A stretch of DNA of 64,000 nucleotides from an uncultured Gammaproteobacteria bacterium (GTDB lineage Bacteria; Patescibacteriota; Patescibacteriia; UBA9934). The stretch covers positions 353,829 to 417,828 of the forward strand of contig CAZREA010000001.1 in the NCBI GenBank assembly GCA_964599455.1, read 5' to 3'. Position numbers and translations under genes: made by a program. The stretch's first letter is position 1, and every line of letters begins with the position of its first letter. Shown here piece by piece: positions 8,514 through 23,128 of this stretch. The notes under the pieces were generated by a model that worked only from the letters and a program-made list of their open reading frames with translations, searched no databases and had not been told where the DNA came from.

Positions 8514-8557
8514 AATCTCAAAAAAACAAAAAACTCTGATACGGTAGAATATCAGAG
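8514..8557 (-). terminator. Rho-independent terminator downstream of the tRNA-Thr 3' fragment (native tRNA terminator)
   Basis: On the minus strand the hairpin CTCTGATA-N8-TATCAGAG is followed by a T-rich tract (complement of the A-run at 8514-8533), immediately 3' of the tRNA fragment. Confidence 0.45.
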
Positions 8558-8562
8558 CCTTT

Positions 8563-8609
8563 TGGAGCCACAGACCAGGATTGAACTGGTGACCTCATCC
8601 TTACCATGG
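8563..8609 (-). pseudogene. 3' fragment of tRNA-Thr(GGU), anticodon loop through CCA (element-junction remnant)
   Basis: Reverse complement reads CCATGGTAAGGATGAGGTCACCAGTTCAATCCTGGTCTGTGGCTCCA. This matches the 3' exon of the intact tRNA at 21736..21776 with two compensatory T-stem changes. It diverges at the 11-bp core CCTTACCATGG. Confidence 0.6.
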
Positions 8610-8823
8610 GGGAGGTCGAGTTCAGAAATCCCAATTATCGGCTAACTGTAGTAAAGAAACCGTGAAAATGAGAAGCTTTGACAATCCGTCTACTCGACCA
8701 CTTCCACAATTAGTTACGACGTAAATTATGCCCCGTGTTTACTCCTTAGTCAAGTACAGATTTCAAGTAGGTACGGCACAAGAGCTACCACACAGAGAGC
8801 CGGCGGACGCTTCCTTTTCATGT

Positions 8824-9414
8824 TTAATTTTTCTTTAGAATTCTCCCAAACCAATAGGAATTCTCATATTTCTTTTCGGTCCGAAAACCAAGTCCCTGCA
8901 ATGCCTGATAAAAATCCTCTCGTCCGAACATTTCCTGATAGGGATGGTCTAAAAAGAGCTTCAGTCCCTTGCCCGGAAGGGATGAAAAGGTTTCGCGCGA
9001 AAGATCTTCGAGAATAAATGAACCTCCGGGTTTGAGTACTCGATTAATTTCCCGCAACGCTTCCCGCCAGTTCGGAATATGATGAAGGATGCCGAAGTCG
9101 AAAACAGCATCAAATGAACCTTCAACAAACGGCAGGTGTGCAACATCAGCTACGGAGAAGGAAACGTTATCGTCATCCACCCGACGCTTCGCACGAGCAA
9201 TCATGTTTTCATCAAGGTCAATTGCATACAGCTTTGCTGGCTCGAAATAGCGCCTGATAAGTTCCGTCCCCCGCCCTTGCCCGCATCCGATTTCAAGCAC
9301 CGTTTTTCCTTTTGGAAGGTCGGACATGCTTTTAAGCTTTCTGGCCTCGAACCCCTGAATAAACCCTCGAATCGGGTTATTCATAAGCCAAAACTCAACC
9401 TTGTTCATCAACAT
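8824..9414 (-). CDS. Class I SAM-dependent methyltransferase
   Basis: Contains VLEIGCGQGRGTE (motif I) and LKPGGSFIL (post-I). Confidence 0.65.
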   Translation of the reverse strand: MLMNKVEFWLMNNPIRGFIQGFEARKLKSMSDLPKGKTVLEIGCGQGRGTELIRRYFEPAKLYAIDLDENMIARAKRRVDDDNVSFSVADVAHLPFVEGSFDAVFDFGILHHIPNWREALREINRVLKPGGSFILEDLSRETFSSLPGKGLKLFLDHPYQEMFGREDFYQALQGLGFRTEKKYENSYWFGRILKKN

Positions 9415-9423
9415 ACCTTCGAG

Positions 9424-9822
9424 TTACTTAAATGCAATTTCAAACCGGTACATTCCCATTCCACACGTTCCTTCAAGGGTTCCCTGCGCTTGGGCTGCGG
9501 TAAGCGCAATAGTTTCTGTACCGGTGGGCTTGAGCATCGCCTGATAGCCGAGAGACGGGATAATTAGGGACGAGGAACAGTCATATGTTCCATTGGTTGC
9601 GACACGAAGCTCTGTAGGCACGCCCGCCTTGGCTTCAACAAACGACGGCGTATAGCCGCCTTTAGCGGCGAGATCGATGACCTGCGTTCCATTCTCGGTA
9701 CTAACCGACCCGTTATCCGTGGCAACCGTCGATGAGCCGTCATTCCTTAAGGCAAAGAAGAGTACCAATAATCCTACGGCAGCACCACAGAAAATTAACG
9801 CTGTTTTTGAATCCTTTTGCAT
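9424..9822 (-). CDS. Small secreted/membrane-anchored cupredoxin-like putative copper-binding protein
   Basis: N-terminal TM helix, then a beta-rich domain with a CSSS...CGMGMY Cys/Met cluster. It is the last gene of the csoR-copA operon. The fold assignment is from memory. Confidence 0.4.
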   Translation of the reverse strand: MQKDSKTALIFCGAAVGLLVLFFALRNDGSSTVATDNGSVSTENGTQVIDLAAKGGYTPSFVEAKAGVPTELRVATNGTYDCSSSLIIPSLGYQAMLKPTGTETIALTAAQAQGTLEGTCGMGMYRFEIAFK

Positions 9823-9837
9823 AAAAGAAGTTAGCTT

Positions 9838-10839
9838 TTAGAGAATGTTGAGTACATGAAGCGAGTTCCACACATTGAAAAGTGCCAACGCTACGACCAC
9901 AATACCCGCCGCTTTGAAGAACACGCCCTTCCACGGCTTGTTGGAGATTTCCAATGCCCCGAATGAAAGGAGCGCTAGCACAGGGAAAGTTCCAAGCGCA
10001 AATGCGAGCATGGTAAGCCCACCCGTCACAAAACTCCCCGTAGTGAGCGTGTAAACCTGCATGGATTGCGTGAAGCCGCATGGGAGGAAGAATGTGCCGA
10101 TCCCCACGAGGAACGGAGCCAGAACGTGTGAGGAACCGCTAGCGCGTACGGTATGCCGTGCAAAGACGCTGGGGAGCTTCGGTTGCAGCCGTTTGAGCGC
10201 CGGGAAGGTATCAAGCAGGTTGAGGCCCAAGATGAGCATAACGATTCCCACAGCTATTCCGAGCACCGCACTCCCCACAAGGCCGAGCTCGAATAACTTT
10301 CCTGCGCTTCCAATTGCGCCGCCAAGTACGAAGAATCCGCCGAGACGACCAACATGGAACATTGCCTGCGAGCGCCAATGTGTTTGGTTTTTGGCGGCGT
10401 TTGCTGAGAGCGACAGGACAAGTCCACCCACGACCGCCAGACACGTTGAGACGGAAGCGATGAGGCCGATCAGAACAGCCGTGCCGTAGGAGACGTTACC
10501 GGACGTAATCAGGTTAACGAGGCCGAGCTGCTGTAGCAGGAGGAAGCCGATAATAGCCGTCAGAGCTGCGGGTATGGCAATAAGAAACTCCCGATGGTTT
10601 TTTCTTTCTTTGGCGCGCTCCAGCGCAAGGCGGTAGCCGTTCCCTGAAACAAGTGTTGTCAGCTTTTCGGCGAGAACGGCAGGATCGCCGTCCAAGTCGC
10701 CAGAAACCGTCACGGCGCACATGGTGAGATCCGCCTTCACTTCTGCCACGCCTGCGTTGCCCTTGAGGGTTTCTTCAAGATAGAAGACGCAGGACGCGCA
10801 ATGCATCCCTTCTACAAAGAATGTGTGTTTACTTTGCAT
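9838..10839 (-). CDS. HMA-domain fused to DsbD_2/CcdA-like thiol-disulfide membrane transporter
   Basis: N-terminal GMHCASC heavy-metal-associated motif, then a 6-8 TM region with STCLAVVGG and FLPCGFT cysteine motifs typical of CcdA/DsbD_2. Confidence 0.55.
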
Positions 10840-13087
10840 ACGAGATTTTCTTCATCTTCAAACGAAGCGAGTTGAGTACGACCGACACGCTCGACATCGC
10901 CATCGCAAACCCTGCAAACACCGGGGAGAGCAGCCAACCCGTGAACGGGTAGAAGACACCCGCAGCAAGCGGGATGCCGATGACGTTGTAGATGAAGGCC
11001 GAGAAAAGGTTTTGACGAACCGTACGCATTGTTGCCTTGGAAAGCTCGATTGCCTGCGAGATTTTACGAATATCGCCCTTAAGAAGCGTCACGTCGCTTG
11101 TCTCGATGGAGACATCAGAACCGGTTGCCATCGCCATGCCAACATCGGCTTGAGCGAGGGCCGGTGCATCGTTTACGCCATCGCCTGCCATCGCCACAAC
11201 CTCCCCCTTGGCTTGTAACTCTTTGATAAGCGCCAGTTTTTCTTGAGGTAGAACTCCCGCAACGTAACGATCAATACGGAGTTCATCCGCAACGGCCTTT
11301 GCCGTTCCTTCATGGTCTCCGGTTGCCATCACGACCTTGATTCCCATGCCATGCAGCTTCCGCACGGCTTCCTTGGCTTCGGGCTTGATCTTGTCGGCAA
11401 CCGCGACAACGGCGAGGACCTCTTTGTCGGTTGCGAGCGCGATCAACGTTGCATTCTTGGATGACGTCTTGCCCTTTGGGAGTGTGAGACCAAGTGACTG
11501 CAAAAGGGCCGGGCCGCCAACGTAATAGGTCGTTCCATCAATGACGCCACGGATACCGCTTCCCGCGATGTTCTCGAACTCAACAACCTTTTTCTTTTTG
11601 GCGTCCTTCGCATAGGCGACGATTGCGTCCGCAAGCGGGTGCTCGGACTTTTCTTCCAAGCTCGCCATAATGGAAAGCGCATCTCCTTCGGGCAGATCTC
11701 CTATTACGGTGAAGTTTGCGACTTCCGGCTTACCCTTGGTGAGCGTTCCGGTCTTATCGATAACAAGCGTCGTGATCTTGTGCATCTTTTCAAGCACCTC
11801 GGCATTTTTAATGAGAATACCTAGCGTTGCACCCCGTCCCACACCGACCATGATCGCCGTTGGTGTTGCGAGGCCGAGCGCACAAGGACACGCAATAACA
11901 AGGACAGTCACGAATGAGGAAATGGCGAGCGGCACATTGCCCAGAAAGAGCCAAACGATAAGGGCAATGAAGGCGACGACCAACACGGCGGGAACAAAGA
12001 CACCGGAAATCTTATCTGCAAGACGCTGAATGGGTGCCTTTGACCCTTGGGCGTCGGCAACAAGAGCGATAATGTGCGCGAGGAGGGTTTCCGAGCCGAT
12101 CCCGGTCGCCTGCATCGTGAACGATCCGCTCGTGTTCATCGTTCCGGCAGAAACCTTGTCACCCGCCTTCTTTTCGACGGGGACAGGTTCGCCGGTAAGC
12201 AGGGATTCGTCGATAAATGACGCACCTTCCGCTACAACCCCGTCCACGGGGATTTTCATGCCCGGTTTTACCAACACAACGTCGCCCTTCTGTACCTGAT
12301 CAATCGAGACCGTTTGTTCTCTGCCCTCCCTAAGAACGGTTGCGGTTTTTACCTGTAGTCCCATGAGCTTTTTAATCGCGTCTCCGGTTTTTTCTTTTGC
12401 TCGGGCTTCAAAGTATTTACCAAGAGTGATCAAACCGATTACGACAATGGTCACGTCGTAGTAGGTCGCCGTAACATCGAGATACGGAGCGAGGACTTCC
12501 TCAAAAGCGGTGAGTGCAAAACTGTATAAAAACGCCGCCACCGTTCCAAGGCCGACGAGCGTATCCATGTCCGCAACACCACGGCGTAGGAACATCCAAA
12601 GACCGCGCAGGTACTGCGTCCCAGTCACGAAGAGAACATATGTCGCCATGATGGGGAGCAAGTGGTGGACGAACTCATAGACCGTTTCCGTCATCGCAGG
12701 GATGACATTAAATTTTGCGAGGATCTCCCAAACCATCATGGCTGCGGCAATAACAACCATGGGCATCGCGACGATAACCTTTTTTCGCAGAGCTCGCGCT
12801 TCTCCGTCAGAAACCGCCGCATGATCGTGCCCCTGCGTCTGATGCGATTCCGGCATTGCGTGAGCAGCGGGGTGTTCCTTAGCGTGGAGCTTGTAACCCA
12901 ATGGCTCAATTGTGCCAGAGAGCTTCTCAACATCCGTTTGGGCGGGATCGAGGGTGATTCGGGCTTCTTCCGTCGCCAAGTTCACCGAAACGTCTTTGAC
13001 GCCCTCTTGCGCCCCAAGTTTTTTCTCAATGCGGGACACGCACGAGGCGCAATGCATGCCTGAAATATGGGCAGTTATTTTCTCCAT
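10829..13087 (-). CDS. copA: Copper-translocating P1B-type ATPase
   Basis: HMA GMHCASC at the N-terminus, TM CPC motif ([12 protein letters not shown]), DKTGTLT phosphorylation site, [10 protein letters not shown] hinge. Confidence 0.9.
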
Positions 13088-13089
13088 AT

Positions 13090-13356
13090 TTATTTGCGCT
13101 TGAGTTTATAGACCTTAAGGATTTCCTCGACCGCCTTACTCTCCTTGCCGTTCTTGATTTGGTTGATGGCACAATGGCCCAAATGGCCTTCAAGCAAAAT
13201 ATCTTCAATGTTCGATAACCCCTGCTTCGCAGCAGAGGTCTGGGTGATGACATCGATACAATAGGTATCTTTTCCAATCATTTCCTGAAGACCACGAATC
13301 TGACCTTCGATGATTTTGAGCCGACGAAGTAAGCCCTTTTTGTCGCCATGTTTCAT
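13090..13356 (-). CDS. csoR: CsoR/RcnR-family copper-sensing transcriptional repressor
   Basis: About 88 aa with the C-x(n)-H-x3-C signature (YCIDV...HLGHCAI). The first ATG is at 13356; the track start at 13362 is a TTG. Confidence 0.7.
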
Positions 13357-13363
13357 ACGCAAA

Positions 13364-13389
13364 CATGATACCCCCTAGGGGGTATCATG
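13364..13389. promoter_or_regulatory. Perfect 26-bp palindrome CATGATACCCCCTAGGGGGTATCATG, candidate CsoR operator
   Basis: It lies immediately upstream of csoR-copA. The TACCC-N-GGGTA core resembles CsoR boxes described for Gram-positive copZA operators, as recalled. Confidence 0.5.
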
Positions 13390-13421
13390 TTAAGAGGCAA
13401 AGTGGATAGCGATTGTTCGGT

Positions 13422-14327
13422 TCAAAAAATAGAGTTAATGGGATTCTTTTCGATACTTGCATGAACCTGCTTTTGGTTGACTTGGGTGTAAATCATGGTG
13501 GTCGTTATTTCTTTATGACCAAGCGCCCGTTGAACGGCGAGAATATCATTGCTCCCCACATATGTTTGCGTGGCGAACGTATGACGGAACTTATGGGGTT
13601 TAATCCGTATACCCGCTCGCTCCCCAATGAGCCGAGTAAGGTGTTTGAGGCCGTTTACCGTGAACCGAGTTCGACCATGATAGGAGACCCAGAGCCAAAC
13701 TGTTTCTACTTTCCGCTTGTCTCGTTCACGCAGGTATCGCTCAAGAAGTTCACGAAGCCGAAAACACATCGGCACAGAACGTGCGGAGCGGCTTTTAGAT
13801 GTTTCGGCTCGGACGCGGATGACGCAGTTTTCCCAATCGAGATCGGTGAGCTTGAGGTTCAGGAGCTCCCCCTTCCGAAGCCCGGCCATAGCCATGACAC
13901 CGAATAAAGCTACATTACGGATACGTTCAAAGTCGGTTTTGGCGCACATGTTAACGTGGTACATGATCGTCTCCATTTCCGTTTGCGAGTAATACTCTGG
14001 CAAGTTCTTCATGAGGGGTGGAACTGGAATGGTATCGAGCGGATTCATGGCCAGATGCCCACGATTAACACACCATTTGAAGAAGGGCGCGAGGTTTTTA
14101 CGGTACGAAATGATTGTCGCTGCCTTCCAGCCACGTTCGCGTTCTCCGCGAATAAGAAACTGCCGCAAAATACCTTCCGTCAACTCGTCAGTTGTTTTGA
14201 CAGGAAATAATTTCAATAGCAGGCGAAAGCTCTCATGGTAGCTTTGCATCGTCGCATCCGAACGACGCGCGAGGGTTCCGTCCTCGCACTCGCGGATGAA
14301 CTGGTTGTGCGCCTGCTGTACATTCAC
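13422..14327 (-). CDS. Tyrosine recombinase/integrase (XerC/D-like)
   Basis: C-terminal catalytic region HKFRHTFAT...LGH...Y with R..HxxR..Y spacing. Confidence 0.8.
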   Translation of the reverse strand: MNVQQAHNQFIRECEDGTLARRSDATMQSYHESFRLLLKLFPVKTTDELTEGILRQFLIRGERERGWKAATIISYRKNLAPFFKWCVNRGHLAMNPLDTIPVPPLMKNLPEYYSQTEMETIMYHVNMCAKTDFERIRNVALFGVMAMAGLRKGELLNLKLTDLDWENCVIRVRAETSKSRSARSVPMCFRLRELLERYLRERDKRKVETVWLWVSYHGRTRFTVNGLKHLTRLIGERAGIRIKPHKFRHTFATQTYVGSNDILAVQRALGHKEITTTMIYTQVNQKQVHASIEKNPINSIF

Positions 14328-14331
14328 AAAA

Positions 14332-14670
14332 TTATTTCATTTCCCACCCGCGCTTTGCGGCAAACTCTTGGCTAATGTCATAAACCATCTGCCAGAGACG
14401 GTCGTCACCCATAAGCTCCACGATGAGCTCCTCCATTTCCGCATCTCCAATTGCAACTCCGTAGTAATCCCGGAAATGAAACCAGAAAGATTCGATAAAG
14501 TCGTACGAAAAGAATTGCTTGCGATCTGGGTGCTCCAAATACATTTGGCGATCTCGCTTTTCGGCTTTATCCGCTCTTGCAAGCATCTCTTCAAATTCTG
14601 GCTTCTCCATATGCTCAAGGGATGCCTGTACCTCCGCCTCCGTCGCCGACTGAATGTTCTCTTGGTTCAT
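14332..14670 (-). CDS. Hypothetical protein (between two recombinase genes)
   Basis: 112-aa acidic ORF, spaced 4 to 14 nt from its neighbours. Confidence 0.4.
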   Translation of the reverse strand: MNQENIQSATEAEVQASLEHMEKPEFEEMLARADKAEKRDRQMYLEHPDRKQFFSYDFIESFWFHFRDYYGVAIGDAEMEELIVELMGDDRLWQMVYDISQEFAAKRGWEMK

Positions 14671-14684
14671 ATCATTTGGGGTTA

Positions 14685-15845
14685 TTAGTTATTTGCTGAC
14701 ATTGCTTTCACGATTTGTGCGATGCGGGCTAAATCTTCCTCGCCAAGAACCGGCTTGGCCTGTAGTGATTCGGGGTCAATGCCGCTTAGCAATTCAATCT
14801 GTCGCTCCTCATCGATCTTGCCGTACCCGTACGAACCGAATGTCGTTGAAACGTGTTCGTGGCCGAGGTTTTGGCTGATTGCCTTTTTCTGCTCCTCGGT
14901 AAGCGGGATTTTCATGAACTCTTTGACGACAAGGTGACGGAATGTGTGAGGATGAAAGTACGGCACTCCGGCGGCCTTGAATCGCTTCTCAAAGATCTTT
15001 CGCGCTGAACTGCTCTTCTCCCAAAATTCTTGGTTAACCTCCCCCGAACTGTAGTAACTGACGTTTTCTTCACCTTGCTCGATTTTTGTTGCCGGGAAGA
15101 TGGGGTCGGTTGCCGCGTACCCTTTCTCGTTCACGAGATAGTCGTACCAACTGAGAAAGTATTCTTTTGGTTTGTCGTATTTGAGCGGGAAGAGGGCTGT
15201 GGTGATGCGTTTGGCGTACTTCGTTTTCACACCCAATGACGGGTCTTGATCGACAACGAGGTCGTCACGATCAAATGCACCGATGGGAAGACTGACGATT
15301 GCCGATATGCGAGCGCCTGTCAGGAGCGAGAAGGAGATCAGTGCCCTGTCTCGACGGTCAACCTCGGTTATTGGCTCGATGAACTCTATGACTGTCTGAA
15401 CCTGCTCAATCGTTGGAATTTTGCGCCGCCCGGACTGACGTGCTTGTCGGCTCTCCTTCTTTCCGAGATTCAGGAAGTCGATGTCGGTTATCTTGATGCT
15501 TTGCTTGTAGGCATCCTGCTCGGCAAGCCACCGGAAGAACGCCTTGAGCTTGCGTAGCGTGTGGTACTGGTATGACACGCTCAGCTTCTCATCCCCTGCG
15601 CCATCACGATCGGCGAGCCAACTTTTGAACTGCATGGCGTTCGCTTTGTTGAACGACCGGAAATCTTCATCGTGCGTAAATTCCTGCCAACGAAGGAGCG
15701 CCTTCTCGTAGGTCTCAATGCTGTTTTCGGCATACCCACCCGAGGCACGTTGATAATCGAAGAAGCGACGCTTCATGATCTCGTTTTGGTAACGAATTTC
15801 CTCGTGGGATTTGCCTTTGATTTTGTCTTCGATGAATTCACTCAT
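14685..15845 (-). CDS. Phage-type tyrosine integrase with N-terminal SAM-like/core-binding domain
   Basis: HPHTFRHLVVKE...LGHEHVSTTFGSYGY. 386 aa. Confidence 0.8.
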   Translation of the reverse strand: MSEFIEDKIKGKSHEEIRYQNEIMKRRFFDYQRASGGYAENSIETYEKALLRWQEFTHDEDFRSFNKANAMQFKSWLADRDGAGDEKLSVSYQYHTLRKLKAFFRWLAEQDAYKQSIKITDIDFLNLGKKESRQARQSGRRKIPTIEQVQTVIEFIEPITEVDRRDRALISFSLLTGARISAIVSLPIGAFDRDDLVVDQDPSLGVKTKYAKRITTALFPLKYDKPKEYFLSWYDYLVNEKGYAATDPIFPATKIEQGEENVSYYSSGEVNQEFWEKSSSARKIFEKRFKAAGVPYFHPHTFRHLVVKEFMKIPLTEEQKKAISQNLGHEHVSTTFGSYGYGKIDEERQIELLSGIDPESLQAKPVLGEEDLARIAQIVKAMSANN

Positions 15846-16291
15846 ATAGTCGTGTTGGGTGGTGATCGATTAATCCCTTTGGGAGATGTACGAAGGAATC
15901 GGCGCATGATCGTGTTGCAACGTCCGCAATGAGCGACATATTGCAATTGATCTTGGTTGTCTTTGCCGACTTTTTTGCCGGTCTTTTCTGTTCGTACTTC
16001 TCTGAGATCAACCCGTATCGCTTCGTGACACTTGAGGCAGTACAGCTCATCCGACTTCAGCTTCACTTCATGGCTCTTTCGCCGCTCACGCAGGAAGGCG
16101 ATCACCGTCTCGCCGTAAAAGAGCAATGGATTTGTATCTGACCTAATGGGCTGTAGACCTTCTTCAATCCATCGATAAACCGTCCCTCGGGTCGCCCCTA
16201 ATCGATCGGCGATTTCCTGTGGCGTATACGTTCGACGCTCCCTGATAATTCGGAGGTTATAGTTGCGCATAGTGGTAGAAGTTAGTTCCAC
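15842..16291 (-). CDS. Excisionase-like HTH DNA-binding protein with C-terminal zinc-ribbon
   Basis: HTH YTPQEIADRLGATRGTVYRWIEEG plus CLKCH...CGRC. The gene overlaps the integrase start by 4 nt. Confidence 0.5.
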   Translation of the reverse strand: MELTSTTMRNYNLRIIRERRTYTPQEIADRLGATRGTVYRWIEEGLQPIRSDTNPLLFYGETVIAFLRERRKSHEVKLKSDELYCLKCHEAIRVDLREVRTEKTGKKVGKDNQDQLQYVAHCGRCNTIMRRFLRTSPKGINRSPPNTTI

Positions 16292-16626
16292 CAGCTCTGC
16301 CCTAGCGCTCCCCGGATTCGACCTTTGACATCCCGAACCGTTGCCCAGAATCGTATCGGCTCCACGATGATCTCTCCCGAGAACAATTGACCCTGTATTT
16401 CCTCAAGCTCTTTAGAGGACACAAAAACTGCCACGGCACGGCGTGGGTTGATAGGATCAGATTCAAATGCCTTGATGGGGATCTCGCGGTAGGCGAGAAC
16501 ACAGATCAAAATAAACTCCGAGGTCTTGAATAGCTTCTCTTTGGATTTCATACAGTCATCTTTTTCATATTGCTTACCACCCCATTTCATCAAAAACGGA
16601 TCACTTAAAATAAGCAGAAACCCCAC
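16282..16626 (-). CDS. Hypothetical protein
   Basis: 114-aa ORF overlapping the next gene by 10 nt. No motif recognised. Confidence 0.35.
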   Translation of the reverse strand: MGFLLILSDPFLMKWGGKQYEKDDCMKSKEKLFKTSEFILICVLAYREIPIKAFESDPINPRRAVAVFVSSKELEEIQGQLFSGEIIVEPIRFWATVRDVKGRIRGALGQSWWN

Positions 16627-16697
16627 CTGCGGAATAACAAAAAAGAGCCGAATGTCCGGGCTCTTAAAAAGTTATCCCCGCTTTAAGTAGAGTTAAG

Positions 16698-17501
16698 TTA
16701 AGCAGTTTTATTTCGACGGGTTTGAAATGCTTTTTGAGTTAAGACTTCCACCGATACCTTGAAGACGACGAAATCGTAGTCCCTCCCAAGAATCTGGGTG
16801 AGCTCATGTTTTCCTTTCGTATAAAGAGGGCACCGACCGTTGGTATTGAAGTAATCCAAAGCTCCTCGAATATCTTGATGACGGAAGCGTTCGCCTTCAG
16901 CGATACGGATCAAGAGATCCCAATACTTTCCATATTTTACCGAAAATGCCCCTGCATAGTTGCCGTTCACAACCACAACTACCTCTCCCTTGCTCCGATC
17001 GGGCAAAAGACCAAGTTGTTGGATCGTTGAATTACAAATATCTTCGTCCTCGTTTTTTGTAGGTTCTCCATCATTTACGCGCCCATCGTTAAGATGTTCC
17101 GCAACCATGAGCGCGATATCCTCCTTGTCTTGCCACCCCATCCGTCGATTGGAAACAATGTACGGAAGGGTTTCTTGTTCTTCTAGGATGTTGGCATACA
17201 GGCCCCCGAATTGCGTGGGTTCGAGAACGGGCAACTGGGGAATTTTTAACACCGCAGTCGCTTGCTCGCTTACTCTCTGAAGTATTTTGTAAGAATCGAT
17301 GATTCCTGAAAAGTTTATCGCTTCAGATATTTGCGTTGCAGTTTTTTGAGCAACGGTCATCGCGCGAGCAATCTGATCAAACTGGCTTTTATGGGCATCG
17401 ACAAAATCCTGAATCACTTTCTGAGATTCAAGGTATGGCTGCATCATTTTTTTCATCTGGCTCTCAACGGCCGGGAGAGCATCTGAATCTAATTCGCTCA
17501 T
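16698..17501 (-). CDS. Hypothetical protein (element cargo)
   Basis: 267-aa ORF with no recognisable domain. Confidence 0.45.
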   Translation of the reverse strand: MSELDSDALPAVESQMKKMMQPYLESQKVIQDFVDAHKSQFDQIARAMTVAQKTATQISEAINFSGIIDSYKILQRVSEQATAVLKIPQLPVLEPTQFGGLYANILEEQETLPYIVSNRRMGWQDKEDIALMVAEHLNDGRVNDGEPTKNEDEDICNSTIQQLGLLPDRSKGEVVVVVNGNYAGAFSVKYGKYWDLLIRIAEGERFRHQDIRGALDYFNTNGRCPLYTKGKHELTQILGRDYDFVVFKVSVEVLTQKAFQTRRNKTA

Positions 17502-17639
17502 ATCGTCATCTTATCTGGGACAAAATTACCAGAAAAAACTGCACTTTTCAATTTGAAGCATGGATAAGCTTGGAGTTGCTTACCCTCAAAAAGTAAGGTA
17601 TTATCTCGGCACAACACCTAAACCCGACCAGTATGGTTG

Positions 17640-17803
17640 GGCATGGTTAAACACCTACACGACTGAGACGGTCTTCCGACTGGCACTTATTCGTGTAGGG
17701 CCCTATTCCGCAAGGATAGGGGGTTGTTGCCGAAAGGCGCAGCCGTCAGCTCGGGGGACCTTTTGAGTTTCCCGAAATCTAATTAACCCCTACACGAATA
17801 CCT
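17640..17803 (+). promoter_or_regulatory. Candidate structured 5' leader/cis-regulatory RNA with mutually exclusive pairings
   Basis: CCTACACGA (17654-17662) and CCCCTACACGA (17787-17797) can each pair with TCGTGTAGG (17691-17699). Between them are hairpins CCCTAT-UCCGCAAGG-ATAGGG and GCC-GAAA-GGC (GNRA). The second CCTACACGA ends 7 nt before the ATG at 17804. Confidence 0.3.
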
Positions 17804-18382
17804 ATGTCGCACGATACGACAGGGACCAAGAACTGGTTCGCCAGACACAAGATACTTAGCGCACTCGGAGGCCTCGTTCTCTTTTTCATAATTATTGGAG
17901 CGGTTTCAGGTGGCTCATCTGATACAAGCTCCTCAAGTGGCTCCTCTGGCTCCAATACCGGCCAACAGAACGCGCCTGCGGCTTACACGCTGAACGATCA
18001 AGTGACCGTGGGCGATGTAAAGTGGGTCGTGACCTCTGCTACGTCCAAAGCTTCGCTTGCGGGAGCGTTTGGCGGAACGGAAACCACCCAAGGAAAATTT
18101 GTGGTGATCAATGTGACTGTTGAAAATCTCGGGAAAGACATGAAAACCATGTCGAACCTAAAATTGGTCGATAGCCAAGGCCGGGAGTTTACGAGCTCTT
18201 CAAAGAGCTACAAGAACCTTGGAGCGGATCAGCTCTATATCCTACAAAACTTGAATCCCAATCTACCGTACACCTTCGCTGATGTGTACGAAGTGCCCGC
18301 CGACGCGGAGGGCTTCTCGGTAGTGGTCGGGGATCTGACCTTCTTCGGAAATAACGAAGCTAACATTGGCCTCGGTTTCTAA
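17804..18382 (+). CDS. Membrane-anchored DUF4352-like (Ig-like) domain protein
   Basis: N-terminal TM helix, Ser/Gly linker, then VGDVKWVV...GKFVVINVTVENLGKD...LKLVDSQGREF pattern resembling DUF4352. Confidence 0.45.
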   Translation: MSHDTTGTKNWFARHKILSALGGLVLFFIIIGAVSGGSSDTSSSSGSSGSNTGQQNAPAAYTLNDQVTVGDVKWVVTSATSKASLAGAFGGTETTQGKFVVINVTVENLGKDMKTMSNLKLVDSQGREFTSSSKSYKNLGADQLYILQNLNPNLPYTFADVYEVPADAEGFSVVVGDLTFFGNNEANIGLGF

Positions 18383-18400
18383 ACCGAAGTGCTCATATAG

Positions 18401-18428
18401 AAAACCTCCCAAAAAGGGAGGTTTTCTT
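18401..18428 (+). terminator. Rho-independent terminator
   Basis: AACCTCCC-AAAAA-GGGAGGTT followed by TTCTTG. Confidence 0.55.
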
Positions 18429-18460
18429 GCTGTACGAATGGCCCTCTGATTGGTAAGCTC

Positions 18461-20788
18461 ATGTCAATTATGATGACAAATGCCTCTCTGAAATACAGGC
18501 CCGTCAGGATCGGTATGCTCGTTAACGAGGGCTCGATTGACGAACTTATTGCCGCCGCAAGTTGGAACAGTATTTTGTGGGGCGGTCTTTACAACCCAGT
18601 CATTCCCTGTGGAGCTAATCAGGAATTAACGCAGAGTTTGATGGAGCTATTTTCTGTTGACGTTCTCTATGCTGTAGGGAAATCAAAAGTGATCACGAAG
18701 GTAATGAACGACCACCCTTTTTTGAGAGAGCAGAGGCATATAGAGGGTCTATTTCATGAAGAAACAGCTCCACGCACAAGAGAGCGTGTTTTAGCTCCTA
18801 CATACCTCAGTTTAAAAGACATCGCTGACTACTTCTGGTACGAAGAGATGCGGCATAAGGATTCCTCCTACAAGAGCGACTTCATCCATCATACATGGGA
18901 ACAGAATGACGATCTGAATGGGTTGATGTCGATGATGTACGGGCGCATACCAAGTGCAGGTTCAGTACCCTTCAAATACTCATTCGACAATATCTTTTTA
19001 AACGGCTTACGAGCTGATTCTTCGACGGTCAAGATTGGCGACCCAATACCTGAACAAGACAAATTTTCGATCATTCAAGCCACGCAAGCACTCCTTCGAG
19101 AACACGGGGATGGTTTCTATCGAAATGGAGGGGGTGTTTATATTGGCTCCCATACCAGTTTTAACGACCTCCTGACTTTTTGGAACTTGCGAGCTTCAGG
19201 TATTGACGTTGCATTCTTTTCGACTGACGCCACAGATAGGACGTTAGGTGCCGCAAAAACACAACTCGATCGTGTTCGTAAAAGGTCGGAGGATACAGAA
19301 ATGCCCTTTGCGGCGTACCCCACCGTCTACCATCAGATTGACGATAAGGATTCAATTGATGCTCATATAAAGCTTCTGTTTTCCGAGGAGGAGAAAAGGG
19401 TGATTCATCACGTCTCGGATCATTCTTGGAACGGTCATAACATTCGGCCCGCGACTTGTAGCTTTTCTTGGGAACAAACAAGTGGAAGTGCAAGCTTGAC
19501 GAATGAGCAGCCAAGCGTGCGTTTTCAGTTACCTCCTATGGACTTCTTACGAGGTCGCGAGGATCTTGATAGCTCAACACTTGCGGTTGATGTTGATGTC
19601 TATTTTGAAGGTGATTACGAGAAACATACCCTCAAGCCCCCATATCTTCGGGGCCTAGATGAATTTTATAGAAGGGGCATACATTTTTCGCCCTTTGGTC
19701 TGCGGGTGCATGGAGGGGGTATTTCATTGCTCGTTGAGACAAACGATCATGATATCCGCCTAAACCCACTTTCAAAAATTGAAACTGTCCACAAAATTTT
19801 TGATCTTGTGGGGCTGCGATCGAAACCAAGCCAGCCGGGTATTGTTGCGCAAAAAATCATTGATCATTTCGGTGGCCTTGAAAAGTTAAGACCCCTTAAG
19901 TTTGATGGGGTGAGAAAATTACTCGAATCCTTAGAGCCGGAAGATACAGTCACGAGGGGACGGGCGACACAAACAATCCATGAATCTAATTTGACGAGAC
20001 ACAGGTTCCTTTCTTCTGCATCAGAGGGAATCAATGCCTCAGAAGTTTTTAACGGGTTGCTCAAGCAACAAGTGTTTAGGCCGGGCTTAGAGCTTACCTG
20101 CGCGAGCTGTACGCTCACCAGCTGGTTTTCACTCGCCGAGTTGGATGACGAGTGGATTTGCAGATATTGCGCCGCAAAGGAACTTACAAGCATTCAATTA
20201 GGGAACCGGGGTGACTGGAAGTTTAGGAAGAATGGTCTCTTTGCGAGGCAAAACAAGCAGGATGGCGCAATCCCCGTCATCTTGACGTTGTTGACCCTGA
20301 ATAGGAGATTCCACGACGGGAAGTTGCTCTGGCTGACGAACACTAAACTCGACGGTGATGGGGTGGACTGCGAAAGCGATTTTGTTGCTATCGTTAAAGA
20401 TAGTAGATCGAGCAAACTAGAAATTTGTATCGGGGAGTGTAAGAGTGGAGGCGGTGAAATCAATCAAGAGGATTGCGACAAGCTAACCGCCGTCGCAGAC
20501 ACGATCAAGAAAAACGATCAGCTTGATTGTTGCATTCTCTTTGCAAAGACGGCTGAAGATTTTACGGATACTGAAAAATCCTTGTTTAAGAGTTTGATTG
20601 AAAAAGGTTACCGAATTGTTCTATTCACCAATAGGGAGCTGGAGCCCTACGAACCTTACTGGACTGACGGAAGTGGAGAAAATCTCCCACAGAAATACGC
20701 CCACTCGCTGGAGGACTTCTCGGCCAATTCACGAGCCCGGTACTTATCCGATCCTGAAGCTAGCCCACAAAATTCAACGGGTGCTTAG
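18461..20788 (+). CDS. Large uncharacterised protein with internal CxxC...CxxC zinc-ribbon and C-terminal PD-(D/E)xK-like nuclease motif
   Basis: 775 aa. CASCTLTSWFSLAELDDEWICRYCAA (zinc ribbon). C-terminal DGVDCESDFVAIVKD...LEICIGECKSGGGE gives a D...ExK pattern. No NTPase motif seen. The 3' end overlaps the convergent integrase gene by 29 nt. Confidence 0.55.
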   Translation: MSIMMTNASLKYRPVRIGMLVNEGSIDELIAAASWNSILWGGLYNPVIPCGANQELTQSLMELFSVDVLYAVGKSKVITKVMNDHPFLREQRHIEGLFHEETAPRTRERVLAPTYLSLKDIADYFWYEEMRHKDSSYKSDFIHHTWEQNDDLNGLMSMMYGRIPSAGSVPFKYSFDNIFLNGLRADSSTVKIGDPIPEQDKFSIIQATQALLREHGDGFYRNGGGVYIGSHTSFNDLLTFWNLRASGIDVAFFSTDATDRTLGAAKTQLDRVRKRSEDTEMPFAAYPTVYHQIDDKDSIDAHIKLLFSEEEKRVIHHVSDHSWNGHNIRPATCSFSWEQTSGSASLTNEQPSVRFQLPPMDFLRGREDLDSSTLAVDVDVYFEGDYEKHTLKPPYLRGLDEFYRRGIHFSPFGLRVHGGGISLLVETNDHDIRLNPLSKIETVHKIFDLVGLRSKPSQPGIVAQKIIDHFGGLEKLRPLKFDGVRKLLESLEPEDTVTRGRATQTIHESNLTRHRFLSSASEGINASEVFNGLLKQQVFRPGLELTCASCTLTSWFSLAELDDEWICRYCAAKELTSIQLGNRGDWKFRKNGLFARQNKQDGAIPVILTLLTLNRRFHDGKLLWLTNTKLDGDGVDCESDFVAIVKDSRSSKLEICIGECKSGGGEINQEDCDKLTAVADTIKKNDQLDCCILFAKTAEDFTDTEKSLFKSLIEKGYRIVLFTNRELEPYEPYWTDGSGENLPQKYAHSLEDFSANSRARYLSDPEASPQNSTGA

Positions 20789-21713
20789 TCATCTGGCCAC
20801 GCAAATGCTCAACGGAGGCCGACAGGTAGATTGTGGTGGTTTTAATGTCGTTATGCCCCAGCATCTTGGAGAGGGAGTAGATATCACAGCCGCCTTCGAT
20901 CATTAGCGTGGCGAAGGTATGTCGGAGCATGTGGATGTAGAAATCTGTCCCAGAGGCCTCAATAATGCGTTCAACGAGACGTTTAAGGCCGGAGTCGGTG
21001 AATCTCCCATCCCGATTCAAAGAAACGAAAAAGTACATGGTCACTTTGTGAAGCCGCTCTCTTTCGGAGAGGTACTTTTGAAGTATGGCAATGAGCTGAA
21101 ACGGCATAGGGACCACGCGATCTTTATTGCCCTTGCCTTGCCGAATACAGATCACCATATTCGTCAGATCCACGTCGGTCATCTTCAGCGTGAGCAATTC
21201 GGTCTTACGAAGGCCACAGTACAGAAACATGGCAAACATGGCGTGGTTGCGGTAGCGAAGAAAAGCATTCGGATACGGCAGACATGCAGCGGTTTCGATA
21301 AGCGTCAGCGCCTCCTGTTTGGTAAGGCGCTTCGGGAGGTTTTTGTCTTGTCGCGGTTTCTCGATTTGTTCAAAGGGATTGTCGATGACAAAGTTTCGCT
21401 CCTTCGCCCACTTGAAGAAGACGTTTAGTCGCTTGTGGTGGGTAATGAAGGTGCTTGGCGTCCACTTTTTTGTTGACCTCCCCCAATAGAAGAATTTTTG
21501 AGCTACCAAAAAAGACACCTCATCAATGCGCTCTACTTCAGGACATGCCTGCAAGAACGTTCTGAGTGTCTCTCGATAACTCTTTACCGTCGTAGGACGG
21601 TAATTCCTGATTGTTTCCTGATACTGACAAAAACTCTCATGGAGCTCTGCGATCTTCATATTCATCTCATTTAGAGCGGAATATGGATCGAGTATCCACT
21701 TCAGGTGGTTCAA
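20760..21713 (-). CDS. Tyrosine integrase adjacent to tRNA-Thr attachment site
   Basis: HMLRHTFATLMIEGG...LGHNDIKTTTIYL. Confidence 0.8.
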   Translation of the reverse strand: MNHLKWILDPYSALNEMNMKIAELHESFCQYQETIRNYRPTTVKSYRETLRTFLQACPEVERIDEVSFLVAQKFFYWGRSTKKWTPSTFITHHKRLNVFFKWAKERNFVIDNPFEQIEKPRQDKNLPKRLTKQEALTLIETAACLPYPNAFLRYRNHAMFAMFLYCGLRKTELLTLKMTDVDLTNMVICIRQGKGNKDRVVPMPFQLIAILQKYLSERERLHKVTMYFFVSLNRDGRFTDSGLKRLVERIIEASGTDFYIHMLRHTFATLMIEGGCDIYSLSKMLGHNDIKTTTIYLSASVEHLRGQMTKHPLNFVG

Positions 21714-21735
21714 TACGAGATTAAGCCATCTGAAG

Positions 21736-22014
21736 TGGAGCCACAGACCGGGATTGAACCGGTGACCTCATCCTTCGTTTACACCTCTGCTTTCTAGGGC
21801 ATATCAGAGGGCTAGACTGTATCTTGAGCTTTCTCTTGCGAGGGAAGCTCCCCTTGTCAGTCGTTCGGGCGTACGCTTTCGCGTTGACGCCACGGTCTTG
21901 ACCTTGCCGGGTCTTTAACCGTAATTCGGGATTCAATCCTGCATTTCTGCGAGGAGGGGCAGGAGACATTACGTCCCACCATGGATGCGCTCTACCAACT
22001 GAGCTACTGCGGCA
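21736..22014 (-). tRNA. tRNA-Thr (anticodon GGU) interrupted by a 202-nt putative group I intron after anticodon position 36
   Basis: Exons (reverse complement) GCCGCAGTAGCTCAGTTGGTAGAGCGCATCCATGGT | AAGGATGAGGTCACCGGTTCAATCCCGGTCTGTGGCTCCA join into a canonical 76-nt cloverleaf with anticodon loop AUGGUAA. The spliced sequence equals the contiguous sequence seen in the fragments at 8563..8609 and 22130..22169. Confidence 0.6.
21777..21978 (-). ncRNA. Putative group I intron in tRNA-Thr anticodon loop
   Basis: The 5' exon ends in U and the intron ends in G. There are R-like (GAACGACUGACAAGG) and S-like (CAAGAUACAGUCUAGCC) elements with a 5-bp P7 (GACUG/CAGUC). A P8-like hairpin (GAGCUU...AAGCUC) and a P9-like hairpin (CCUCUG...CAGAGG) are also present. 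No ORF inside. Confidence 0.45.
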
Positions 22015-22129
22015 TGAATTGTTTGGCTCCGACGGCCACTTCCACGGGGGATGTGGTCGTCTGATTTTTGTTTTCTTGATTTCTTCTTTTACATTAGCGT
22101 GAAACCGCGTTTCTAGGGTAGACCGCCTC

Positions 22130-22169
22130 CTTACCATGGATGCGCTCTACCAACTGAGCTACTGCGGCG
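22130..22169 (-). pseudogene. 5' fragment of tRNA-Thr(GGU), positions 1 to ~41, ending at the 11-bp core (element right junction)
   Basis: Identical over 36 nt to the 5' exon of the intact gene. Sequence upstream of the core is unrelated to tRNA. Confidence 0.55.
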
Positions 22170-22177
22170 AATAAAGC

Positions 22178-23128
22178 GTGCAAATAGTAACAAACGCTCC
22201 TACGAGCGTCAACGAATCTTTTATGACAGGGAAAAAATCTTGGCTACTTGGACTCATCGTTCCGTTGATTTCACTGGCTTTTCTTTTGGGGATAGTCTAC
22301 GGAAATATCTCTCCATTAACACCAGAAGAAGCAGAAAAAGATGAACGTCCCGCCTACAGCAGCGGCTGGTATCCTGCTTCGTTCTATGCAGGCGCTTATC
22401 AAAAAGCAAAAGGTGAAAAGGTGCCCGAAGCGACATCTGGCCTTGTGGCACATCACCTCTTGGTTGCCAACAAGATTGCCGAAGTCTTTGAAAATCTTGC
22501 AAGCGATGAAGTAAAAACCGTCGTCCTTGTCGGCCCCAACCACTTCAAACGCGGCGTATCGCTTGCACAGGTATCAAAAAGAGAATGGAACACACCTTTC
22601 GGAGATGTCGTCGCTGATGATGAGGCAATTGATCGACTTCTCTCTGCCCTCCCCTTTTTACATCATGAAGAAACAGCCTATAAAAGCGAGCACGGTATCT
22701 ACGGCTTAATGCCCTTCATCGCAACTTCCTTCCCCAATGCCAAAGTAGTACCGATCATCTTACAAGAAGATTTATCCGCCGAACGTGCCTGGGAAATAGG
22801 ACAAACGATCGCGCAAACCCTTCCGGACGCAGTATTATTTGCCAGCGTTGATATGACGCATAATCGTGATGCTGAGTTTACCGCATACAATGATGCGCGC
22901 GTCCTCGATCTTTTACACGATGCCGGCATGTGCGACGGGACGCTCTGCATAACAGATCTTGTTATCGATTCAAATACCTCACTGCGTGTGCTCTTTGGTT
23001 TTAACGCCGAACGCGGTACAACACAATGGCAAATGACTCATCACGGCAGTTCTTTGGAAATGGGAGCGACCAAAAATTGGCTTGAAAATACCAGTCACAT
23101 TCTCGGCTATTTCTTGCCAGCGAAGTAA
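22178..23128 (+). CDS. MEMO1-family (AmmeMemoRadiSam system protein B-like) protein
   Basis: HHLLVANKIAE...VVLVGPNHF...ASVDMTHN pattern recalls the Memo-like fold. Alternative start MTGKK at 22223. Confidence 0.4.
   Translation: MQIVTNAPTSVNESFMTGKKSWLLGLIVPLISLAFLLGIVYGNISPLTPEEAEKDERPAYSSGWYPASFYAGAYQKAKGEKVPEATSGLVAHHLLVANKIAEVFENLASDEVKTVVLVGPNHFKRGVSLAQVSKREWNTPFGDVVADDEAIDRLLSALPFLHHEETAYKSEHGIYGLMPFIATSFPNAKVVPIILQEDLSAERAWEIGQTIAQTLPDAVLFASVDMTHNRDAEFTAYNDARVLDLLHDAGMCDGTLCITDLVIDSNTSLRVLFGFNAERGTTQWQMTHHGSSLEMGATKNWLENTSHILGYFLPAK

Follow-up and report, generated by a model that had tools for sequence, protein, structure and literature searches.

How can a mobile element break a tRNA gene in two and leave behind a working host? 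Patescibacteria have reduced genomes (~1 Mb), often with single copies of their tRNA genes, so that disruption of one of these genes could be lethal. The question is raised by a 64-kb stretch of contig CAZREA010000001.1 (assembly GCA_964599455.1, placed by GTDB in the Patescibacteriota), hereafter the window, in which two halves of a tRNA-Thr(GGU) gene enclose 13.5 kb of DNA. All coordinates given here are positions in the window, and the pieces of tRNA-Thr(GGU) are read on its minus strand. Our analysis indicates, with good confidence, that the enclosed DNA (8610-22127) is an integrated mobile island that split the host tRNA-Thr(GGU) gene and brings its own replacement for it.

The two halves are joined to the element through a short shared core. 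The sequence CCTTACCATGG is present exactly twice in the window, at 8599-8609 and 22129-22139, against a chance expectation of 0.02, and none of 100 shuffled sequences held two or more matches. A preliminary description of this DNA had placed an 11-bp core at 8599-8609 and 22130-22140; the repeat itself stands, the second position shifts by one, and identity runs one base beyond the 11 bp to give a 12-bp core, TCCTTACCATGG (8598-8609 and 22128-22139), which takes in the 7-nt anticodon loop together with the final two pairs of its stem and nucleotide 41. Joined through the core, the fragments form, as had been proposed, a contiguous 76-nt intron-less tRNA-Thr(GGU) split in the anticodon stem-loop, for which ARAGORN draws a perfect cloverleaf. 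With the halves joined, the rebuilt host attachment site (attB) reads GCGCATCCATGGTAAGGATGAGGTCACCAG; the attB junction stretch is GGTAGAGCGCATCCATGGTAAGGATGAGGTCACCAGTTC and that of the element site (attP) is GAACTCGACCTCCCCCATGGTAAGGAGGCGGTCTACCC. Neither junction as it now stands is a tRNA, again in agreement with the preliminary description: the Rfam tRNA model (threshold 29 bits) gives 16.9 bits at the left junction (attL, 22103-22168) and 13.9 bits at the right junction (attR, 8566-8610), ARAGORN calls no tRNA at either, and attL is devoid of a T-arm and of acceptor pairing. The terminator hairpin reported behind the 3' fragment was recovered as a 16-pair stem with a T-run, and a simple consensus scan of 21500-22400 found its sole promoter-like match just upstream of the 5' fragment.

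A complete tRNA-Thr(GGU) lies within the element, ~115 bp inside attL and directly upstream of the integrase gene (int). Its presence beside an integrase had been predicted, with an end at 22014 that we correct to 22013. ARAGORN calls this gene with its intron option (-i) only, placing a 202-nt intron at position 36/37; the gene escapes ARAGORN at default settings and the Rfam search at the gathering threshold. Once the intron is removed, the element tRNA folds as a perfect cloverleaf that is identical to the rebuilt host tRNA at 74 of 76 positions, the sole difference being one compensatory pair in the T-stem (ACCGG/CCGGU in the element copy, ACCAG/CTGGT in the host 3' half). Since the only promoter-like site nearby is the one upstream of the host 5' fragment, the element tRNA may be transcribed from the host tRNA promoter after integration.

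The intron interrupts the element gene between U36 and A37, and this position falls inside the attachment core. In all eight homologous sequences the last exon base is a U in the U.G wobble of P1, and the 3' base of the intron is a G. The P2 loop is GAAA, P7 reads GACUG/CAGUC and J8/7 reads AAGAUA, and P4/P6, P8 and P9 can be drawn together with the P3/P7 pseudoknot. The fold was tested against eight homologous introns, of which six come from elements and two from chromosomal genes (an earlier version had five sequences). Across its 46 pairs, 98.1% of cells were paired and 15 pairs had changed on both sides (in P1, P2, P6, P8 and P9), compared with 25-45% paired cells and at most 4 covarying pairs in controls whose 3' partners were slid by 1-3 columns. 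Covariation neither supports nor contradicts P3, P4 and P7, which are invariant in the eight introns, and P3, of only 3 bp, is tentative. The pre-tRNA transcript should self-splice to a normal tRNA.

We traced homologues of the integrase to their metagenomic contigs (loci labelled L0xx) and found the same arrangement at attL at eight independent loci, with integrases 52-92% identical. Wherever the DNA reaches far enough, the order is host flank, tRNA-Thr(GGU) 5' fragment ending in the core, a conserved arm (P'), a ~110-bp spacer with a conserved hairpin, a complete tRNA-Thr(GGU), and int. Besides the window, this order is seen with an intron-containing element tRNA in L006 (integrase 82% identical to that of the window), L076 (83%; the same locus as L075/L077), L078/L079 (80%) and L082/L083/L085 (at least 90%), and with an intron-less element tRNA in L007 (72%), L008-L010 (68%) and L052 (52%). 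In L081 (79%) an intron-containing tRNA lies beside int; the contig begins inside the 5' exon, leaving the junction outside. The intron is present at 6/6 distinct loci that have an integrase at least 79% identical and DNA reaching it (L006, L076, L078, L080, L081 and L082), with only its 3' part visible in L080.

The host 5' fragments at these loci differ from host to host, both in their anticodon stems (CATCC, CGTCC, CTTCC) and in their D-loops, and the flanks upstream of them are unrelated (upstream identities of 8-65% are noisy for unrelated DNA and are used qualitatively only); among intron-type elements, identity over the P' arm and spacer is 73-87%. The switch from variable to conserved sequence falls at the core, as predicted for an att junction, and on this comparison the idea that the 5' fragment belongs to the element is ruled out. 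In L082 and L078, the host stem (CGTCC and CTTCC, respectively) is followed by the GGAGG of the element, placing the crossover at or before position 41. The host of the island is a Patescibacteria (CPR) bacterium: close relatives of the integrase come from contigs named Patescibacteria, Uhrbacteria or Parcubacteria, and a cluster of 25 sequences at least 90% identical includes contigs of up to 536 kb, one of them named 'Patescibacteria group bacterium'. The host gene order RRF-GlyRS-M16 peptidase-TIM-TPR is common to the window, L007 and L008, and many of the host proteins flanking the element are without an NCBIfam match.

A metagenome scan with alignment of TPR proteins identified ~36 orthologous loci at which an intact, intron-less tRNA-Thr(GGU) lies shortly downstream of the TPR gene with no integrase, usually followed by tRNA-Tyr and tRNA-Thr(UGU); L052 was occupied. 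The 11-bp sequence CCATGGTAAGG is nearly universal in the tRNA-Thr(GGU) genes of these empty loci, which explains how one integrase family can use many hosts. The uninterrupted loci, which belong to distant relatives, show the locus in its ancestral state and do not represent an empty allele of this species.

We propose that the Xer-like integrase (20760-21665) recombined a 12-bp sequence of the element, CCATGGTAAGGA, with the identical 12 bp in the host tRNA-Thr(GGU). Because only these 12 bp are shared, integration would split the host gene into a 5' half at attL and a 3' half at attR, and the complete tRNA-Thr(GGU) of the element would make up for its loss. If the two cores then recombined, probably with assistance from the element's HTH_17 protein, the island would be excised and the host gene restored exactly. 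The replacement gene itself has no contiguous core at the DNA level, because the intron sits inside it.

Several observations weigh against this account. The empty loci belong to distant relatives only, their TPR proteins being 24-38% identical, and for this species we found no empty site, circular attP junction or excised form, so that the search recommended in the preliminary description yielded an intact tRNA at distant loci and neither an empty site nor a circular junction in the species itself. A scan of genome collections with the flanking Memo-like protein gave no close relative, only a 26%-identical Omnitrophota match; the closest Memo homologues (L003-L005, 56-58% identical) do not keep the synteny upstream of Memo and are uninformative on the site. 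Neither the attL junction nor an intron segment gave a match when viral contigs were scanned. The attR junction was seen in no related locus, contigs or flanks having ended before the second core in the fetched DNA, and our survey of tRNA-Thr(GGU) gene copies was confined to the window out of the whole genome. The short Xer-like integrase has no obvious arm-binding domain, so that the repeats in the element arms, described below, may not be integrase sites. The Rfam group I model (Intron_gpI, RF00028) does not match the intron even at E<=10; we treat this as a limit of the model, because Nakagawa et al. (mSystems 2026, PMC13011429) report the same failure while the tFind bacterial model detects this intron type. 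Finally, homologous introns occur at 36/37 in chromosomal tRNA-Thr(GGU) genes at their native locus with no integrase nearby (L044/L050 and L029), and related elements use an intron-less tRNA that still holds the 11-bp core. Because of these chromosomal copies and working intron-less relatives, the intron is neither element-specific nor required for the strategy.

Short-read contigs (Logan, ENA) break inside the duplicated 5' sequence of the tRNA (L001 at 1-40, L006 at 1-30 and L075 at 1-20), and a 3.2-kb contig with the Memo protein breaks exactly at the tRNA repeat. Elements of this kind would consequently be fragmented in most k-mer assemblies, and their junctions lost.

We weighed three other accounts of the island. 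Had it been a classical tRNA island, with the tRNA restored at the junction and the internal tRNA an incidental extra copy, the P' arm should resemble a tRNA 3' half, and to some extent it does: the ungapped match to the tRNA-Thr 3' half is 18-19/36 in the window (~50%; shuffle p=0.0004-0.0014) and 18-20/36 in most elements (shuffle p ~0.0001-0.004), and in L076 tRNA identity continues 20 bp from the core start. The sub-threshold score of attL, its missing T-arm and acceptor pairing, and the failure of ARAGORN to call a tRNA at either junction make this account very improbable. The resemblance is better suited to P' as a putative decayed tRNA 3' half, which fits an ancestor that restored its tRNA classically; with a complete tRNA gene alongside, the segment would have been free to decay. 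Alternatively, the 36-40 nt of repeated tRNA sequence might have caused a chimeric join in assembly, in which case the fragments would have no link to the element. Short-read contigs do break at the repeat (L001 begins at the shared ACCATGG, L006 and L075 at points within the tRNA), but the host-element junction has been assembled through in independent samples and by independent assemblers (L076, L078, L079, L082, L083, L007, L008 and L052), including in a contig of 462 kb, and we give an artefact even less credence. The island might also be a fossil that integrated as described and is now immobile, its intron-containing tRNA serving as the working tRNA-Thr(GGU) of the lineage and the fragments persisting as inert scars. 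The lack of any excised or empty form recovered for this species, the location of close integrase relatives in large chromosomal contigs, and the near-identity of the element tRNA to the host gene apart from one compensatory pair, which suggests long co-residence or gene conversion, would all agree with this. Both 12-bp cores are intact, however, the three recombinases are full-length with their catalytic motifs, and elements of the same type are found in more than one host, each with its own flanks and cargo, for which the family must have been mobile recently; we regard a fossil as unlikely.

What the intron contributes is a separate issue. We lean slightly to the view that it is a neutral passenger, acquired by homing or by capture of an intron-containing chromosomal gene and without a role in integration or self-avoidance. 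Because homologous introns sit at the same position in integrase-free chromosomal genes, in L044 beside a weakly LAGLIDADG-like open reading frame (ORF), the element tRNA would either be a captured intron-containing gene or have been invaded by the intron; moreover, related elements work with intron-less tRNAs, and such introns occur in 3/95 complete Patescibacteria genomes (PMC13011429). Less easily reconciled with a passenger are the placement of the intron site within the 12-bp core and the pattern at base pair 29:41, where the intron-less element tRNAs all differ from their targets and the intron-bearing ones do not, as expected from selection against self-targeting, in a sample of only two or three independent lineages. 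This pattern raises a tentative proposal, which we consider rather doubtful: that the intron, or else a changed 29:41 pair, acts as a self-immunity device by which the tRNA gene of the element is spared by its integrase. The intron would split the att core in the DNA and vanish from the RNA, allowing the element to carry a perfect copy of its target without recombining with itself, and the intron-less relatives would reach the same end through the altered base pair. A41 is part of the 12-bp core. T29 is found in 8/8 disrupted host genes and T29:A41 in 34/37 uninterrupted chromosomal genes, whereas the intron-less element tRNAs have A29:T41 (L007, L008) or G29:C41 (L052), and the intron-bearing ones keep T29:A41 but are split inside the core. 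That two independent lineages should both be non-T:A against a background of ~3/37 has p ~0.007, which is suggestive, in a small sample. If the proposal holds, elements of this family would be unable to use intron-containing chromosomal tRNA-Thr(GGU) genes (L044/L050, L029) as targets, and the intron would be a bacterial self-splicing counterpart to the archaeal hypothesis that introns protect tRNA genes from integration.

The chromosomal intron-containing genes have neighbours of their own. In L044 (10964-11829) the tRNA-Thr(GGU) at its native locus has a homologous 196-nt intron and no integrase, and L050 (4422-5285) has the same tRNA gene and ORF. The 201-aa ORF of L044, with an HTH at its N-terminus and weak similarity to LAGLIDADG_3 (E=0.0075), ends within the first bases of the tRNA; its product may be a free-standing homing endonuclease acting with the intron. 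In L029 (11270-11720), a second tRNA 5' part lies upstream of the intron-containing gene; this copy has an apparent D-loop interruption of ~100 nt, ends at CTTGG and has a small ORF just before it, which we take to resemble the four-helix-bundle proteins of rRNA intervening sequences. For the intron tRNA of L029, ARAGORN gives the false call Arg(GCG) 34/35, and an identical miscall is reported in PMC13011429.

The features of the locus are collected in the table below.

Table. Features of the split tRNA-Thr(GGU) locus and of the island within it, in order of position in the window.
Feature	Coordinates	Strand	Remarks
Intrinsic terminator of the original host tRNA-Thr(GGU) gene	8527-8564	-	16-pair stem and T-run right after the CCA end
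Host tRNA-Thr(GGU) 3' half, right junction attR	8563-8609	-	8609 to 8563 are tRNA positions 30-76, CCA encoded
Common core, copy 1	8598-8609		TCCTTACCATGG on the plus strand; CCATGGTAAGGA on the tRNA strand
Element arm P beside attR	8610-8823	-	holds CCACTTCCAC at 8698-8707, repeated in the other arm
SAM methyltransferase (cargo 2)	8824-9414	-	Pfam
Cupredoxin-like protein (cargo 2)	9424-9822	-	Pfam
HMA+DsbD_2 membrane protein (cargo 2)	9838-10839	-	Pfam
Copper P-type ATPase (cargo 2)	10829-13087	-	Pfam
CsoR-type repressor (cargo 2)	13090-13362	-	Pfam
Tyrosine recombinase, 301 aa, backbone	13422-14327	-	PF00589, E=1.7e-31; orthologues 77-82% identical in L006, L007
112-aa protein, backbone	14332-14670	-	no Pfam family; 104-112-aa gene at the same place in L006, L007, L082
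Divergent tyrosine recombinase, 386 aa, backbone	14685-15845	-	PF00589, E=1.6e-8, and SAM-like N-domain; 67-72% identical in L006, L007
HTH_17 (excisionase/MerR-like) DNA-binding protein, 149 aa	15842-16291	-	PF12728, E=6.6e-7; PHROG excisionase/regulator matches
DUF5659 protein, backbone	16282-16626	-	Pfam; order kept in L006, L007, L082
267-aa protein, backbone	16698-17501	-	order kept in L006, L007, L082
LOOT RNA (Rfam RF03000)	17615-17744	+	52.3 bits, gathering 46.4; upstream of the DUF4352 gene
DUF4352 protein with N-terminal membrane anchor, backbone	17804-18382	+	PF11611, E=3.3e-12; phrog_806, function unknown
775-aa protein (cargo 1, variable slot)	18461-20788	+	no Pfam, PADLOC or PHROG match
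Xer-like tyrosine integrase, 301 aa from ATG 21665	20760-21665	-	PF00589, E=1.8e-34; candidate tRNA-Thr(GGU)-specific integrase
Conserved hairpin, element tRNA CCA end toward int start	21696-21738	-	CCACTTCAG...CTGAAGTGG; overlaps the CCA end
Element tRNA-Thr(GGU), complete, intron-containing	21736-22013	-	ARAGORN with intron option (-i)
Element tRNA 3' exon, positions 37-76	21736-21775	-	ARAGORN -i
Group I intron, 202 nt, tRNA position 36/37	21776-21977	-	U-1, omega-G, P1-P9 fold with P3/P7 pseudoknot
Element tRNA 5' exon, positions 1-36	21978-22013	-	identical to the host 5' fragment across 36 nt
Spacer and element arm P'	22014-22127	-	P' ~22092-22127; hairpin 22029-22061 holds CCACTTCCAC at 22036-22045
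Common core, copy 2	22128-22139		second 12-bp repeat of TCCTTACCATGG
Host tRNA-Thr(GGU) 5' half, left junction attL	22129-22168	-	22168 to 22129 are tRNA positions 1-40
Promoter-like site of the host tRNA gene	22184-22212	-	TTGACG-17-TACTAT with TG, just upstream of the 5' half; consensus match only

The gene content agrees with the preliminary description, which had listed three tyrosine recombinases, an excisionase-like gene and copper resistance: Pfam returns Phage_integrase three times together with HTH_17, CsoR, P-type ATPase, HMA/DsbD_2 and cupredoxin families. Inspection of their translations shows each of the three recombinases to be full-length and to contain the R, K, HxxR, H and Y motifs. 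The cargo 2 region has a G+C content of 54-56% against ~47% around it; otherwise, G+C content is not discriminating. A backbone comprising DUF4352, the LOOT RNA, the ~270-aa and ~90-aa proteins, the HTH protein, the 385/386-aa recombinase, the ~110-aa protein and the ~300-aa recombinase is common to L006, L007 and L082, in which two slots carry different cargo. The slot between int and the DUF4352 gene holds unrelated genes in each element: a 775-aa protein in the window (18461-20788), a serine recombinase, ParB and unknowns in L006 (1409-6100), CHAT-like and SHOCT proteins in L007 (10884-13377), and a 434-aa protein in L082 (10969-12273). To judge by these contents, it looks like a defence or accessory slot.

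The LOOT RNA is fixed in the backbone of the family. In every case it closely precedes the DUF4352 gene, with which it shares the strand, in a divergent intergenic region facing the ~270-aa gene, and it scores at or above the gathering threshold in the window (17615-17744, plus strand), L006 (6794-6922, 48.2 bits) and L082 (12971-13099, 52.3 bits), and just below it in L007 (14015-14139, 45.3 bits).

Two conserved minus-strand hairpins flank the element tRNA, one in the spacer ~16 nt upstream (22029-22061) and the other running from its CCA end (21696-21738); neither has a T-run behind it. The arms of both vary among elements and stay complementary, for example GACCACATCC/GGAAGTGGCC in the window versus GACCGCATCC/GGATGCGGTC in L007, and for the 21696-21738 hairpin this is seen in L006, L076 and L082. 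Each arm of the reconstructed attP contains one copy of a 10-mer direct repeat, GTGGAAGTGG (plus strand, 8698-8707 and 22036-22045). As candidates only, these repeats may bind an accessory protein; we did not adopt them as arm-type integrase sites, given the absence of an obvious arm-binding domain from the Xer-like integrase. The P arm also contains a promoter-like site on the minus strand (8753 to 8725; TTGACT-17-CATAAT, 10/12) that faces the tRNA 3' fragment and the host genes past the terminator.

Other identities considered for the element did not agree with its content. It contains no phage structural or conjugation genes, and PHROG finds no capsid, tail or terminase genes, its matches being limited to the integrases, weak regulator, excisionase and terminase-small-subunit matches on the HTH_17 protein, and phrog_806. 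With no close relative in IMG/VR or INPHARED either, we rejected a temperate phage; the best identity for the integrase family was 34% in IMG/VR, and tblastn of the integrase against phage and plasmid collections (INPHARED, PLSDB) gave at best 33%, in generic XerC/D-like matches. Recombinase-in-trio (RIT) elements have three adjacent tyrosine recombinase genes as one unit. Here, ~5 kb separates the integrase gene (20760-21665) from the remaining two recombinase genes, and the 112-aa gene lies between those two. The PADLOC matches mad1 (HTH_17 protein, E=2.7e-11) and mad2 (methyltransferase, E=4e-24, partial) are domain-level only and come from genes 7 kb apart, and we do not regard them as a defence system.

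The integrase occurs with other kinds of cargo and in other settings. L008 (7123-18031) has a 68%-identical integrase, the same split-tRNA junction and its own intron-less tRNA-Thr(GGU) in front of a prophage-like body with a large terminase, a DEAD/SNF2 helicase and a methylase. On this basis the module of integrase, att site and tRNA is common to different element types and seems to move between them. More than 100 protein clusters from many metagenomes are 52-57% identical to the integrase, including one on a 5.2-Mb contig and one in a metagenome-assembled genome labelled Polaribacter. Because L052, at 52% identity, keeps the split-tRNA architecture, the integrase family may extend beyond Patescibacteria.

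These results extend disrupt-and-replace integration at tRNA genes beyond actinobacteriophages to a non-phage island family in Patescibacteria, and link the group I introns of Patescibacteria tRNA genes to tRNA-targeting integrases, with the intron site and the recombination core coinciding. The old idea that introns shield tRNA genes from integration thereby becomes directly testable in bacteria, and LOOT RNA, an orphan Rfam motif, gains a genomic home. Standard tRNA and group I annotation misses the element tRNA gene, which matters for estimates of genome completeness. What is new is a non-phage Patescibacteria element family that combines disrupt-and-replace with an intron-bearing replacement tRNA; the integration strategy (PMC10865867) and the intron type (PMC13011429) were already known. 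Our literature searches turned up no integrative element described as having a replacement tRNA with an intron; the split-and-replace strategy and the tRNA intron are each known separately.

The closest known system is the tRNA-dependent lysogeny of actinobacteriophages (Fionnbharth, Cluster L and others; Guerrero-Bustamante & Hatfull, mBio 2024, PMC10865867), in which a ~10-bp common core is used, the tRNA is not reconstructed, the element codes for a tRNA of identical isotype, and this tRNA has been shown to be required for survival; the Lj965 prophage of Lactobacillus johnsonii is cited in the same work. The preliminary description had set the present locus apart from the usual reconstitution of a tRNA 3' end, rightly so in that the junctions are not tRNAs, yet the arrangement is not unprecedented, for it matches tRNA-dependent lysogeny. 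In both systems a tyrosine integrase acts on a host tRNA gene through a short core (12 bp here), no tRNA is rebuilt, and the element brings its own tRNA of the same isotype, here tRNA-Thr(GGU). The present element differs in being non-phage and in having Patescibacteria as hosts. Its short Xer-like integrase is at most 34% identical to sequences in IMG/VR, INPHARED and PLSDB, whereas the phage integrases are lambda-like with an arm-binding domain, and the gene for its replacement tRNA is the immediate neighbour of attP and int and, within this clade, is interrupted inside the core by a group I intron. A route of decay from a classical reconstituting ancestor, such as the P' arm suggests, was raised by Guerrero-Bustamante & Hatfull in their discussion.

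The island shares with classical tRNA islands a tyrosine integrase beside a tRNA gene, a crossover in the symmetric anticodon stem-loop and direct repeats at its ends. The anticodon loop reportedly forms a sublocation class of tRNA integration sites of its own, as Williams is said to have set out in 2002. In classical tRNA islands and prophages the element supplies the 3' segment of the tRNA (introduction of PMC10865867); here, by contrast, the core is 12 bp and not 30-45 bp, the gene is not restored, and P' would be a decayed relic of such a segment.

Nakagawa et al. list introns at tRNA-Thr(GGU) 36/37 in three Patescibacteria genomes, GCA_001029635.1, GCA_016700375.1 and GCA_030583745.1 (PMC13011429, Table 1; 3/95 complete), missed by RF00028 and found by the tFind bacterial model (Williams 2020, bioRxiv 10.1101/2020.01.27.920355). 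The intron described here agrees with these in its tRNA, position and phylum, its length of ~200 nt with no ORF, the RF00028 miss, and its U-1, omega-G and P1-P9 fold. In that paper the introns are listed as genome features and the word 'integrase' has 0 occurrences; here, an integrative element carries the intron-bearing gene as cargo and has the intron-less allele as its target, at the same position. According to the summary in PMC4390854, Randau & Soll proposed that archaeal tRNA genes gain protection against integrating elements when they are disrupted or contain an intron. As in that hypothesis, so far as the summary presents it, an anticodon-loop intron removes the contiguous recombination site. 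The intron here is a predicted bacterial self-splicing one and those in archaea are protein-spliced, and where the summarised hypothesis concerns host genes, the protected copy in the present case would be the element's own tRNA and possibly the host copies L044 and L029.

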